64,000 nt of DNA from Alphaproteobacteria bacterium. GTDB taxonomy: Bacteria; Pseudomonadota; Alphaproteobacteria; GCA-2731375. The position numbers and the translations under genes were made by a program. Positions 27,508-31,396 of this stretch are shown one piece after another. The stretch is from positions 608,001 to 672,000 of the forward strand of contig CBDDBZ010000039.1 in NCBI GenBank assembly GCA_965225945.1. The letters run 5' to 3'. How positions within the stretch are numbered: the stretch's first letter is position 1; every line of letters starts with the position of its first letter. The notes below the pieces were generated by a model that did not search any database, was not told where the DNA came from, and was given only the letters and a program-made list of their open reading frames with translations.

Positions 27508-28296
27508 TCAGCGCGGCCAGTCGCGCAAATTCACCAGGCCGCCGTCGATCGGCAGCAAGATCCCGGTGACCCAGCGCGCTTCGTCGCTGGCCAGGTAGAG
27601 CGCGCCCCAAGCGACGTCCCAGGCGGTGCCCCGCGTCGCCATCGGCACCTGGTCGACGCGGCGTTGGCGCGCCTCCTCGCCCATGTGGGCGACCATGGGC
27701 GTGTCCACCGTGCCGACAATGATGCAGTTGCTGCGAATGCCGTCGCGGGCGAAGTCGGCGGCGACCGAATAGCTGAAGCCGTGCATGCCGGCCTTGGAGG
27801 TCGCATAGGCGGCGGCGCCGACGGCGCTGATCAGCCCGCGGGCACCGGCGATCGAGGAGATGTTGATGATCGAGCCACCGCCGGCCCGCTTCAGCGCCGG
27901 GATCGCCGCCTTGGTGCATTGCATCATCGACTTCAAATTGACCTCGAGGACCGCGTCCCAGTCGGCTTCCTCGACCACCTCGGCGGTGCCGCCCTGGCCG
28001 ATGCCGACGTTGTTGACCAGGATATCGAGGCGGCCGTGGCGCGCTTCGGCCAGGGCGACCATGGCGCCCGCGTCCTCGGCCCGGGTCGCGTCGCCGGCAA
28101 AAACCGAGGCCTCGCCGCCCTCGCCGGCGATCTCGACGCGGAGCGCCTCGGCCCGTTCCTCGGAGCGGTTGACCAGGACCACGCTAGCGCCTTCGCGGGC
28201 GAAGAGGATCGCCATCGCCTTGCCGTTGCCGACACCCTCGCCGCGCGAGGCCGCGCCGGTGACGATGGCGACCTTGCCGTCCAGCCGTCCGGTCAA
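27508..28296 (-). CDS. Short-chain dehydrogenase/reductase
   Basis: VTGAAS..GVGNG, LVNNVG, YATSK, IDGG. Confidence 0.93.
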   Translation of the reverse strand: MTGRLDGKVAIVTGAASRGEGVGNGKAMAILFAREGASVVLVNRSEERAEALRVEIAGEGGEASVFAGDATRAEDAGAMVALAEARHGRLDILVNNVGIGQGGTAEVVEEADWDAVLEVNLKSMMQCTKAAIPALKRAGGGSIINISSIAGARGLISAVGAAAYATSKAGMHGFSYSVAADFARDGIRSNCIIVGTVDTPMVAHMGEEARQRRVDQVPMATRGTAWDVAWGALYLASDEARWVTGILLPIDGGLVNLRDWPR

Positions 28297-28659
28297 TGTT
28301 TCTCACTCCTTGAAACCGACTTGTCCCAATTGACCGCCGGTTCTGGCCATGACGCTAGCCATTTGGGCCTTCGATGGCAATTTGGCGATCGTTCGCCGCG
28401 CAGGGGGCGCCCGCCGCCGGTCCGCGGCGACGAGGATACACCTCGTCATGACCACGCGAGCGGCGCCGTGTTCGATGGAATTGGCGCCTGTCGGCAAGCG
28501 CGCCGGCACCTCTGTCCCATTTTGAAACTGTATTAAACTAGAACAACTGCCCCAATTTGAACTATTTGTCCTAATTCAGAACGTACCGATTTGGGGATTT
28601 CCGCTCAATAGAGGGATGCGACGCGGGAAAACCCTTGGAATCCCACAGGTGCCCATAGT

Positions 28660-28675
28660 TGGCACGCCCCTTGCT
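28660..28675 (+). promoter_or_regulatory. Sigma-54 (-24/-12) promoter
   Basis: TGGCACG-CCCC-TTGCT, exact match to consensus TGGCACG-N4-TTGC(A/T). Confidence 0.85.
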
Positions 28676-28684
28676 ATGTATGTT

Positions 28685-28818
28685 GGTGAAGGCCACGAGG
28701 CGGTCCGACCCGGCAAGCGGTTTTCACCTAGAGTGTAGATTCCCTCTCTGTCTGACCGTTCATGCCCTCAACCCGGTCAGACGTCGCTTTCGGGCGCCCT
28801 CGGGCGCCCTTTTCTTTG
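28685..28818 (+). ncRNA. Candidate sigma-54-dependent small RNA (~130 nt)
   Basis: Starts ~12 nt after the -12 GC; stems GGTGAAGGCC/GGTTTTCACC and GTCTGACCG/CGGTCAGAC; ends in an intrinsic terminator; no credible ORF. Confidence 0.7.
28792..28818 (+). terminator. Rho-independent terminator
   Basis: GGGCGCC-CTCG-GGCGCCC hairpin followed by TTTTCTTT. Confidence 0.85.
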
Positions 28819-28917
28819 CTTATAGGCCCTGTCGGGACGAATTGCCATCACCATTCGTCAACGCCATCGGGGCGCCCGGGCCGCGGGATCGGGCGCGATG
28901 CGGCCCGAGTCCCGCGA

Positions 28918-30315
28918 TTATTTCTCCAGCGCGGCGCGGGCGCGGGCGATCTCGCCGGCCAGTAGGTCGGCTTGCGGCAGGCCGGGCTCGATCTTGGCCA
29001 GCAGCCGCTCCCAGAGCTCGACCGCGCGGGCCAATCGGCCGGACCGGGATTCGGAGAGGCCGACGAACCACAGCGCCTCGCCGTGCTCGGGATCGAGCTC
29101 CAGAACCCGTCTGAAATCGTCGAGCGCCGCGGCCGGGAGCGCCGCCTCGTCGGCGGCGGCGGCGATCGAGGCGCGCGCGCGGGCCACCAGCGGCGCCGGA
29201 TGCTCGGGGCGAAGCGCGCTCGCCCGGCCATAGGCCGCCACCGCCTCGGCCCCGCGTTGCAACACACCGTAGGCGCGGCCGAGCCGCATCCAGCCGTCGA
29301 AATCCTCGGGCGTCTGCTCCAGCCGCGCGGCCAGCCGCGCGACCATGGCCCCGATGAACGCGGCCCGCTCACCTTCGTCCATGCCCTCGACCAGGGAGGG
29401 ATCGGGCGCGCCCGGCGCCGCCGTCCTCGCCCGGGCCTCATGGCTGCGCAGGCGCGCCAGGAACGCCGGCGGCAACTCATCTTCCAGCGGAATCGCCAAC
29501 TTCTCGCCCGCCCGGGCGAGCCTGAGCAACACCCGATCGAGCCAGGGAGCGTCCACCGAGGCCGTCTTGGCCAGCGCGAGCCAGCCGTCGAAGGCCGCCT
29601 GCGGCCGGCCCGCCTGCCATTCCGCCAGCGCCAGGTAGTAATGCGGGCGGGGCAAGGCCGGATCGCGCGCCCGCGCCGCCTCGAAGGCCGCGCGCGCGGC
29701 CGGGCGAACCGTGCCCTCGGCGGCAAGGGTCAGCGCCTCGCCGAGGTCCGCCTCGCTCCGCGCCTCGCCCGGCGCGCGCGCCACCGCCTCGTAAAAGGCC
29801 TCCGCTGCCGCCGTCGCGCGACCGTGTGCCAAAAGCGCGTGGCCGAGAACACGCCAGCCCTCGACGTCGCCCGGCGCCTCGGCCAGGCGGGCTCGGAGCT
29901 GCCGGACTTCCTTGCTCAGCGGTGCCCGCGCCTCGGCCTCCGGGCGCGGCGCGGGCACCGCGCCCTCCAGCCCGGGCGAACCGAGAAGCGCGTAAAGCCC
30001 AAGCGCGATCGCCGGCAGGGCGAGCACGACGACGATCGCCGGCAGACGGGAGCGGTCCCCCGCCTCGCCGCCATCCTCCGCCAGGTCGACCAGGCGGAGC
30101 AGCCGGCGTTCGATCTCCAGCCGCGCCGTGGCCGCCTCCCCGGCCCCGATCAGGCCCCGCACGAGATCCTCCTCCAGCTCCGCCAATTGCCGGCGGTGAA
30201 CGGCGATATCGTGCTCGCGCCGGGCCCTGGGCGCGCGGGCGCGGCCGAACAACGGCACCAGCAGCATGGCCGTCATCGAGGCCGCCAGCACTGCCAGAAC
30301 GAGCCAGAGACTCAT
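28918..30315 (-). CDS. ccmI: Cytochrome c biogenesis protein CcmI/CycH
   Basis: N-terminal TM, RRQLAELEEDL.RGLI, ARLEIERRLL, LYALLGSP, two TPR clusters. Confidence 0.9.
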   Translation of the reverse strand: MSLWLVLAVLAASMTAMLLVPLFGRARAPRARREHDIAVHRRQLAELEEDLVRGLIGAGEAATARLEIERRLLRLVDLAEDGGEAGDRSRLPAIVVVLALPAIALGLYALLGSPGLEGAVPAPRPEAEARAPLSKEVRQLRARLAEAPGDVEGWRVLGHALLAHGRATAAAEAFYEAVARAPGEARSEADLGEALTLAAEGTVRPAARAAFEAARARDPALPRPHYYLALAEWQAGRPQAAFDGWLALAKTASVDAPWLDRVLLRLARAGEKLAIPLEDELPPAFLARLRSHEARARTAAPGAPDPSLVEGMDEGERAAFIGAMVARLAARLEQTPEDFDGWMRLGRAYGVLQRGAEAVAAYGRASALRPEHPAPLVARARASIAAAADEAALPAAALDDFRRVLELDPEHGEALWFVGLSESRSGRLARAVELWERLLAKIEPGLPQADLLAGEIARARAALEK

Positions 30316-30791
30316 ACCGGCCCGTCCTCTTCGGCCAGCAGGTCCTCGAGCCGGCGGCGCTCGTCGGCCGCCAGCGCCGCCGGCGCCGCCGCGCTTTGCC
30401 GGCGCCGGCGATACCACAGGACGACGCCGAGACCGCCCCCGATCAGCAGCAGCGCCGGGGCCAGCCAGATCAGCGCCGTCGCTGGGCGAAACGGCGGCCG
30501 CAACAGCACCCACTCGCCGTAGCGTCGAACCAGAAACGCCCGCACCTCGTCGTCGCCGTCGCCCGCCACCAATCGCTCGCGCACCAGGGTGCGCAGATCG
30601 CGGGCCAGTTCGGCGTTGGATTCGGCGATCGACTGGTTCTGACAGACGAGGCAGCGGATTTCCCGGTGCAGCGCCAGCGCCCGGGCCTCGAGGGCGGGAT
30701 CGACAAGCGGCACCTCCGGCGCGCTCTGGGCCCAGGCCGTCGCGGCGAACGCCAGCACCGCCGAGGCCAGAGCCACGCGAAACCTCAGCAT
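30312..30791 (-). CDS. ccmH: Cytochrome c biogenesis protein CcmH/CycL
   Basis: IRCLVCQNQSIAESNA, RYGEWVLLRPP. Confidence 0.95.
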   Translation of the reverse strand: MLRFRVALASAVLAFAATAWAQSAPEVPLVDPALEARALALHREIRCLVCQNQSIAESNAELARDLRTLVRERLVAGDGDDEVRAFLVRRYGEWVLLRPPFRPATALIWLAPALLLIGGGLGVVLWYRRRRQSAAAPAALAADERRRLEDLLAEEDGPV

Positions 30792-31396
30792 GCCACCGCC
30801 TCTCCGGCCCGTGCCGCCCGGATCGCGGGCAACAGTTTGGTTTCGAGGGCTTGCTCCGATATCGCGCCGATGTGCTTGCAAACGATGCGGCTGCCGGCAT
30901 CGACGACGAAGCTTTCCGGCACCCCGTAGACGCCCCAGTCGATCGCCACCCGGCCGGCCCGGTCGGCGCCGACGCCCTGATAGGGATCGCCGAAGCGGGT
31001 CAGCCAGCGGAGCGCCGGCTCCCGCTCGTCCTTGTAGTTGAGGCCGTGGACGGTGACGATTCCCCGCTCCTTCAGTCGCATCAGGATCGGATGTTCGATC
31101 CGGCAGGTGAAGCACCAGGAGGCGAAGACGTTGACCAGCGTCACCTCGCCCACCAAGTCGGCGCTGGCGAGGCCCGGCGCGCGGCCCTCGATCGGCGGCA
31201 GGTCGAACTCGGGCACGGCTGAGCCGATGAGGGCGGAGGGAATCTCGCGGGGTGCCAGGTAGAGACCGTGCAGCAGAAAGCCGCCGAGCGCCACGAAGGC
31301 GAGCAGCGGCACCAGCGCGAAGCCGAGGCCCAGGGGATTTCGGAGGGGACTCCGCGGCGCGTCGTCTCCACCGGCGTCGTTCTCCGAGGTGCGCAT
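30785..31396 (-). CDS. ccmG: Thiol:disulfide interchange protein CcmG/DsbE
   Basis: NVFASWCFTC, GVYGVPESF. Confidence 0.95.
   Translation of the reverse strand: MRTSENDAGGDDAPRSPLRNPLGLGFALVPLLAFVALGGFLLHGLYLAPREIPSALIGSAVPEFDLPPIEGRAPGLASADLVGEVTLVNVFASWCFTCRIEHPILMRLKERGIVTVHGLNYKDEREPALRWLTRFGDPYQGVGADRAGRVAIDWGVYGVPESFVVDAGSRIVCKHIGAISEQALETKLLPAIRAARAGEAVAC

Follow-up and report, generated by a model that had tools for sequence, protein, structure and literature searches.

The window, i.e., the whole stretch of 64,000 nucleotides, contains between two protein genes a sigma-54 promoter and, directly behind it, a predicted small RNA (sRNA) gene with three hairpins, the last of which is an intrinsic terminator (Table 1). 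Both flanking genes, one for a short-chain dehydrogenase and one for a CcmH/CycH-type TPR protein, are located on the minus strand. Downstream of the sRNA no co-directional gene is found, and the next gene converges on it from the opposite strand. An earlier note on this DNA had described a perfect sigma-54 promoter with a start around 28686 and two minus-strand neighbours that leave this promoter without a protein gene to drive; both descriptions agree with the promoter sequence and the two ORFs listed in Table 1.

Table 1. Features of the sRNA locus (positions in the window) and the candidate activator gene (position in genome G000)
Feature	Position	Strand	Basis or remark
Short-chain dehydrogenase ORF	27508-28296	-	Flank of the sRNA locus
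Candidate activator box 1, TGTCCCATTTTGAAACT	28513-28529	+	Centre at -165; 11.3 bits
Weak box-like repeat, TGCCCCAATTTGAACTA	28548-28564	+	Good left half only; below 4.7 bits; possible third site
Candidate activator box 2, TGTCCTAATTCAGAACG	28567-28583	+	Centre at -111; 8.1 bits
Promoter-proximal A-tract element, CGCGGGAAAACCC	28622-28634	+	Around 25 nt upstream of the -24 element
Sigma-54 promoter, TGGCACGCCCCTTGCT	28660-28675	+	-24 GG at 28661-28662, -12 GC at 28673-28674; read from the sequence
Predicted sRNA transcript, around 132 nt	28686-28817	+	+1 from promoter geometry; R3 alignment 28687-28818
5' hairpin: 10-bp outer helix, internal loops, small inner helix	28685-28728	+	RNAfold
CU-rich single strand, TAGAGTGTAGATTCCCTCTCT	28729-28749	+	Unpaired in the centroid fold
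Stem-loop 2: 9-bp stem, 15-nt loop with invariant UGCCCUCA	28750-28782	+	RNAfold, covariation
Intrinsic terminator: 7-bp GC stem, loop CTCG, tail TTTTCTTT	28792-28817	+	Terminator scan
CcmH/CycH-type TPR protein ORF	28918-30900	-	Flank of the sRNA locus
NtrC-family candidate activator gene	G000 contig 18, L048:1373-2851	-	GSFTGA loop

Concerning the promoter, the strict motif TGGCA[CT]N5TTGC[ATC] has only six matches on both strands of genome G000 (6.27 Mb), such that its presence at this locus is not explained by chance. One of these six precedes a flagellin gene, flagellin genes being classic sigma-54 targets, and rpoN is encoded in the genome. Judging from the promoter geometry, transcription would start near 28686. 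An A-tract-like element (GGCGGAAAACnGC or its complement) occupies the same position in most copies of the sRNA family described below, and may act as a bend, as an IHF site, or as the site of a second protein. A strict sigma-54 promoter is also situated at C38:162764 (+) of G000, in front of an ORF that, judged by eye, resembles the start of a GGDEF domain (diguanylate cyclase); it carries the proximal element of the sRNA promoter (GGCGGGAAAC...GGAAT) and has no TGTCCC box. As for the neighbourhood, the sRNA gene points, in convergent orientation, towards the 3' end of a gene for a CcmH/CycH-type TPR protein in four genera (window, 28918-30900; L012, L021, and L026) and diverges from a gene for a FAD-dependent oxidoreductase in two, which looks like an old and conserved arrangement.

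The RNA begins with a helix formed by GGTGAAGGCC (28685-28694) and GGTTTTCACC (28719-28728), which comprises ten pairs including two G-U pairs. After the CU-rich single strand, GTCTGACCG (28750-28758) pairs with CGGTCAGAC (28774-28782) and encloses the loop TTCATGCCCTCAACC; the terminator hairpin GGGCGCC-CTCG-GGCGCCC (28792-28809) passes directly into the T-rich tail TTTTCTTT. RNAfold predicts exactly these three hairpins with a free energy of -54.3 kcal/mol (z = -3.0), a stability reached by one of 200 shuffled sequences. The succession of elements in the earlier note, i.e., a 10-bp stem, an unpaired tract, a second stem with CCCTC in its loop, and a GC hairpin followed by a T-tract, was recovered at the same positions throughout.

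In metatranscriptome data from one study (unstranded Logan contigs), two of four runs cover the locus, from 28495 to 28802 and from 28601 to 28795, respectively. These contigs begin upstream of the promoter and their depth is low, as it is in the other contigs of the organism; no discrete RNA ends were seen in the contigs of the four runs, and the contigs at the locus may represent carried-over DNA or read-through. At position 28739 they exhibit a T, as opposed to the A of the window; the GATTCCC of the window thereby becomes GTTTCCC, the consensus of the family, and the difference probably reflects strain variation.

BLAST comparison with two genomes of the same genus yielded a similarity that starts at the promoter and stops at the terminator; in three other genera the likeness is confined to the 3' half. 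A first covariance model (R1) was built from this 3' half alone, and the promoter and the 5' hairpin, having been left out of it, therefore served as independent tests. Within the genome collection, the family to which the window belongs is equal to its whole order (33 genomes of eight genera). R1 matched in 17 of these 33 genomes, and a second model (R2), built without the promoter from 25 verified copies, matched in 29 of them, representing seven of the eight genera. Two first-round matches (L025 and L044) were dropped, as they were based on the terminator alone. Among 150 other alphaproteobacterial families, each represented by one genome, R2 found no credible match, and its one extra match outside the order had an E value of 0.0036 in a genome of 1 Mb. 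A blastn search of a plasmid collection gave no match, whereas a pattern scan of a named genome collection retrieved four metagenome-assembled genomes (Alphaproteobacteria/Rhodospirillales) in addition to nine chance hits in unrelated phyla.

Many genomes possess two or three tandem copies of the sRNA gene, around 300 nt apart. The promoter motif is found at a fixed distance in 42 of 45 copies, and the search models held no promoter: TGG[CT]A[CT]-N5-[TC]TGC is present in 24 of the first 25 copies, at 61-71 nt and once at 87 nt upstream of the model start, and the motif recurs in 18 of a further 20 that were outside any model, which widens the usual distance to 60-72 nt. In the three exceptions, the -24 or the -12 element is altered at one or two positions, and in one case the loop has decayed as well. 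The loop core UGCCCUCA is invariant in 44 of the 45 copies, the tract GCUUUYCUCUYU is kept across the family, and the terminator is retained in all copies, with covarying pairs. The sequence of the 5' hairpin is quite different between genera, whereas the CU tract and UGCCCUCA are nearly invariant. Since many copies are close kin, most of them from one genus, these counts overstate the independence of the observations. The unit from promoter to terminator is kept across the order, as would be expected in relatives from the interpretation of the earlier note. In genome G001, the identical sRNA sequence occurs on two contigs, and a group II intron is situated directly downstream of one sRNA copy (L008:1745-2035, contig 7; Rfam D1-D4, 132.8 and 54.1 bits).

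Compensatory changes were seen in all helices. In stem 2, all nine pairs show changes on both sides, and 92-94% of the alignment cells are paired, compared to 24-50% when the partner strand is slid. When 27 full-length copies, taken from the largest genus and from one other, were aligned with plain MAFFT and without fitting to any structure, the alignment gave 94.8% paired cells, again compared to 24-50% after sliding, and double changes in 17 of 30 pairs. A third model (R3) built from this alignment aligned all 12 copies from the other five genera at full length, its 5' end coincides with the predicted start (28687 in the window), and in the alignment fitted with it double changes are found in 26 of the 30 pairs. 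For the 5' helix, compensatory changes affect three of six pairs in the unfitted and five of six in the fitted alignment; furthermore, when 44 copies were folded singly, 42 of them had a hairpin within 5 nt of +1. One alignment (A8) was excluded because it contained antisense terminator matches.

Comparison of the whole window with 4227 Rfam models produced no match at the gathering thresholds, in accordance with the suggestion in the earlier note that this may be a new family. The loose likeness to the core of alpha-r8/suhB/MmgR that had been mentioned there did not hold as membership: the corresponding model (RF00519), whose gathering score is 41, reaches 15.0 bits (E = 2.1) in the window and 17.9-20.4 bits in the relatives, and the seed of MmgR is deleted in the cmscan alignment. 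Among the relatives, the highest scores below threshold were 29.6 bits for ncS54 (RF02871; threshold 43) and 25.1 bits for BjrC1505 (RF02356; threshold 50). As the scores for suhB/MmgR, BjrC1505, and ncS54 are all sub-threshold and rest mainly on the terminator, this likeness does not amount to membership, and assignment to suhB/MmgR was rejected also in view of the length of around 132 nt, the three hairpins, and the two C-rich motifs. In the literature searched, no sigma-54-dependent sRNA with a dedicated activator was found for Alphaproteobacteria, and nothing matched the element of the window.

Of the enhancer-binding proteins encoded in G000, three, namely NtrC, NtrX, and FlbD, score above the NCBIfam cut-offs, while two further ones, of 492 aa (contig 18) and 664 aa, are unclassified. 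The loop that contacts sigma-54 was found only in NtrC and FlbD (GAFTGA) and in the contig-18 protein (GSFTGA). The latter falls below every NCBIfam cut-off; for its orthologues only generic names occur in the sources, and the TacA paper gives no binding site. The receiver domain is normal in most of the orthologues, whereas the usual aspartate context is missing from those of the genus of the window. The region from ntrX to hfq is present twice in G000 with identical scores (C22:101932-105087 and C36:411194-414350), which may point to a duplication that arose during assembly and would agree with the contamination of 5.6%.

The sRNA genes are preceded by TGTCCC-N5-GGGACA-type repeats, and the promoter of the contig-18 activator gene contains a 17-bp dyad TGTCCC-N5-GG(C/G)ACA in all 15 genomes examined (there as TGTCCC-N5-GGCACA). 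It overlaps with CTTGTC-N17-CTAnAn, which, by the -35/-10 consensus, resembles a sigma-70 promoter. A weight matrix was derived from these 15 activator-gene boxes only and scanned over 212 nt upstream of each sRNA promoter, with 2000 windows of the same genomes as background (mean -0.4 bits, 99th percentile 8.1 bits). The best site exceeds the 99th percentile in 36 and the 95th percentile in 38 of 42 sRNA promoters, with a median of 12.75 bits. In 23 of the 42 promoters the centre of the best site falls between -94 and -98, and in the others it is mostly found at -86, at -108/-109, or at -119 to -121, positions that lie around one helical turn apart. Among the 42 copies, good boxes were missing in both genomes of the genus g8, in the downstream tandem copies of the genus g7, and in G002. 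The window itself has rather weak boxes (11.3 and 8.1 bits) with poor right halves; as the genome has 460 sites of at least 8.1 bits in 12.5 Mb, the occurrence of two within 220 nt is improbable by chance.

The distributions of activator and sRNA correspond only loosely: both were detected in 27 of the 33 genomes, many of which are incomplete; two genomes possess the activator alone (G007, which is 100% complete, and G017), two the sRNA alone (G041, and G046 with a decayed copy), and two neither. Clear orthologues of the activator (58-67% identity) exist in 13 of the 150 other families sampled, and in these the box is found in the orthologue's own promoter at no fewer than three of 11 loci, with 15-23 bits. 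Other sites of at least 13 bits within around 260 nt of a sigma-54-like motif were not found in G000, in which the sRNA thus appears to possess the sole sigma-54 promoter with boxes of this activator; a search of the same genome for perfect dyads yielded one unrelated site. A strict pattern of box plus promoter matched once in 400 further genomes of the class, at a place that resembles coding sequence, and not at all in five genomes with activator orthologues, a result that says little, since the pattern also missed G000 and three sampled genomes of the same order and is therefore of low sensitivity. Among the perfect boxes of these five genomes, one from another family (G033; L180:1501-1760), TGTTCCATTGCGGGACA, is followed at a distance of 174 nt by a sigma-54 promoter and then by a gene for a signal-peptide protein, which may be a protein-coding target that the orthologous activator controls there. 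Downstream of the activator gene, most genera have a gene resembling indolepyruvate ferredoxin oxidoreductase (L048, L153-L164), and a conserved inverted repeat between the two (AGGTCAGAATAGCTTACCT) suggests a separate repressor site.

Other sigma-54 promoters of the order carry different boxes. Those of glnB and glnK are preceded by dyads of the form TGCC-N9-GGCA (e.g., TGCCTAAATTTTGGGCA), which probably constitute the NtrC box of this order, and the flagellin promoter exhibits repeats of the GGCGGCA type. Given these differences, a protein of the contig-18 type is the best candidate for the activator of the sRNA genes, with NtrC as its main rival. The regulatory sRNA under the control of an enhancer-binding protein that the earlier note had proposed is thereby supported, with rpoN present, the promoter retained in nearly all copies, and a candidate activator whose gene carries matching boxes. 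The -12 elements of the glnB/glnK promoters (L071, L082-L130) are unusual, namely ATGC, GTGC, or TTGG. A motif upstream of one glnK gene of G000 (TGTCCCGATTC), which had been followed as a lead, was rejected because it is the end of an IS630-like element; a copy of the terminal repeat of such elements is situated upstream of a P-II gene (G000 C30, around 51500).

Regarding the mode of action, an sRNA that pairs with G-rich ribosome-binding sites and thereby masks them would be in keeping with the C-rich tract UUCCCUCUCU, the loop UGCCCUCA, the U tail, and an hfq gene in the genome; the U tail TTTTCTTT and the invariant loop are features of Hfq-type sRNAs. Tandem sRNAs with C-rich loops mask ribosome-binding sites in other Alphaproteobacteria. 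When 4670 translation-start regions of G000 (66% G+C) were scanned for duplexes, chance hits predominated. The best match of the loop comprised 12 contiguous pairs with a PanE-like gene, and a site in the gene for the pyruvate dehydrogenase E2 component (PDH E2) was the second candidate; neither site is kept in the orthologues (four genomes for the PanE-like gene and five for PDH E2), and both were discarded. The two candidates hence lend no support to the pairing model, and the anti-Shine-Dalgarno action of the RNA is putative. An insertion sequence of G000 with a transposase of 373 aa (52 copies, e.g., C14:35269) has a ribosome-binding region (AAGAGGGAAATCATG) that is complementary to the CU tract of the sRNA over eight to nine bases, a match that may be fortuitous or may mark a genuine target.

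The same sRNA might be activated by the general nitrogen regulator NtrC instead of the contig-18 protein, which we consider unlikely. NtrC is encoded with an intact GAFTGA loop, the boxes at the sRNA genes have the same layout as those at glnB/glnK (17 bp with an AT-rich centre), some sRNA sites read TGCCCC...GGCAC, and the alphaproteobacterial sRNA MmgR is described as NtrC-induced, with a predicted RpoN motif (PMC7143759). However, the third base of the half-site differs consistently and symmetrically (TGTC...GACA compared to TGCC...GGCA), in every one of the 15 genomes examined it is the other activator gene whose promoter contains the matching box, and the P-II loci with their NtrC-type boxes, used as background, do not exceed 12.0 bits with the matrix. 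That the upstream TGTCCC motifs have no regulatory role and are leftovers of mobile-element ends, the promoter being silent or served by another activator, is regarded as very improbable: the IS630-like terminal repeat CTAGTGTCCCGATTC, present in 25-31 copies in G000, does have 11 bases in common with the half-site of the box, but the full dyad is kept near -97 and in helical phase across genera whose upstream sequences have diverged, and it recurs in the activator promoter in 15 of 15 genomes as well as at three of the 11 orthologue loci in other families.

An alternative role for the RNA itself would be that of a decoy for a CU-binding protein, in the manner of CrcZ or RsmZ, with tandem copies adding binding sites. 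The two conserved C/U-rich motifs in single-stranded contexts, the arrays of two or three copies, and the failure to find a conserved mRNA target (two candidates of G000 in up to five genomes) are all compatible with such a role; each RNA, however, carries only two motifs, the combination of a seed in an apical loop with the U tail of a terminator is the layout of a pairing sRNA, and we know of no CU-specific global regulator in Alphaproteobacteria, such that the decoy appears quite unlikely. A gene for a small protein, or the leader of a longer mRNA, can scarcely be credited. An ATG in the loop does open a frame of 67 codons in the window (28762-28965), but across the copies no conserved ORF was found, and the sole recurrent frame, which starts from the ATG or GTG of the loop, varies from five to 120 codons and has five codons in ten copies; in addition, a strong terminator and then a converging gene on the opposite strand follow, and the helices covary as RNA. 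A small translated ORF, which the earlier note had named as a finding that would speak against its interpretation, is thus not indicated by the family.

The segment 28660-28817 is accordingly best regarded as an independent gene for a trans-acting sRNA of around 132 nt, controlled by sigma-54 and an NtrC-family activator and pairing at ribosome-binding regions, a reading to which we attribute a probability of roughly 0.7. It would be transcribed by sigma-54 RNA polymerase, and the contig-18 protein, the most likely activator, would bind to TGTCCC-N5-GG(C/G)ACA dyads that precede the start of the sRNA by 90-190 bp and, by way of autoregulation, also to the dyad in its own promoter. The resulting RNA would consist of a 5' hairpin with retained structure and variable sequence, a CU strand, a hairpin displaying UGCCCUCA, and the terminator with its U tail. 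The C-rich loop, aided by the CU tract and probably together with Hfq, would pair with G-rich ribosome-binding regions and block translation. The order of control would then run from a response-regulator activator through sigma-54 to the sRNA, as in the LuxO-Qrr system.

The copies constitute a real family of predicted sigma-54-dependent sRNAs that is order-wide, had not been catalogued before, and probably has a dedicated activator. More tentatively, these genes might be the principal, perhaps even the only, sigma-54 output of a conserved alphaproteobacterial response-regulator activator, in a two-tier switch of the LuxO-Qrr type; we consider this possible, with the odds somewhat against it. 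If so, a signal would set, in a graded manner, the dose of one to three tandem sRNAs, by which translation is reprogrammed. As orthologues of the activator occur in 13 of 150 other families and at least three of 11 loci have the box in their own promoter, counterparts of the sRNA that are unrelated in sequence may exist in other orders. The analysis provides a new RNA family with a covariance model ready for use, a predicted recognition box for a fairly widespread NtrC-family activator, a testable circuit with autoregulation, and an entry to regulation in an order for which metagenome-assembled genomes are nearly the sole source of knowledge. In addition, it illustrates that real sRNA genes can be discovered in raw sequence by starting from the promoter.

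Among known alphaproteobacterial sRNAs, MmgR of Sinorhizobium (alpha-r8) is described in a review as Hfq-dependent and 77 nt in length, with an anti-Shine-Dalgarno motif, induction by NtrC, and predicted RpoD and RpoN promoter motifs (PMC7143759). This constitutes a functional parallel to the sRNA of the window, and both have a tract resembling UUUCCUCCCU, of anti-Shine-Dalgarno type, before the terminator of an Hfq-type sRNA. MmgR is considerably shorter, however, and possesses a small 5' hairpin, a single anti-Shine-Dalgarno tract, and no second seed loop; furthermore, the boxes found here differ from the NtrC-type boxes of the order. AbcR1/AbcR2 and CcsR1-4 are tandem alphaproteobacterial paralogues as well, in which C-rich motifs in loops and single strands mask ribosome-binding sites. 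Their tandem arrangement and the location of these motifs are similar to those described here, whereas their promoters are of the sigma-70 or heat-shock type, and no Rfam match to them was obtained.

In Gammaproteobacteria, the sigma-54-dependent sRNAs Qrr, GlmY, CrcZ, and NrsZ, the last of which is made of processed repeats, have dedicated activators and act as central switches. For NrsZ of Pseudomonas, dependence on RpoN and an enhancer-binding protein is described, and GlnZ and NrsZ are named as RpoN-dependent sRNAs (PMC9731577). NrsZ adjoins ntrBC and has no sequence relation to the sRNA of the window, whose activator is probably another. GlmY of enterobacteria depends on sigma-54 and on GlrR (QseF), which binds to several dyads upstream of the gene. 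The GlrR box, TGTC-N10-GACA, resembles the TGTC-N9-GACA found here, with a spacing that differs by one base; GlmY itself folds differently, serves as a decoy for the protein RapZ, and gave no Rfam match in the window. Concerning the Qrr sRNAs of Vibrio, there are again differences: no Rfam match to Qrr was obtained up to E = 10, the box is another one, the copies are in tandem here and dispersed in Vibrio, and the activator gene is located apart from the sRNA gene in the genomes studied here. Despite these differences, the general organization is similar to that of the Qrr/LuxO system, in which several paralogous short sRNAs with a conserved seed and a terminator are likewise expressed from sigma-54 promoters, with an activator of the response-regulator type binding to upstream dyads.
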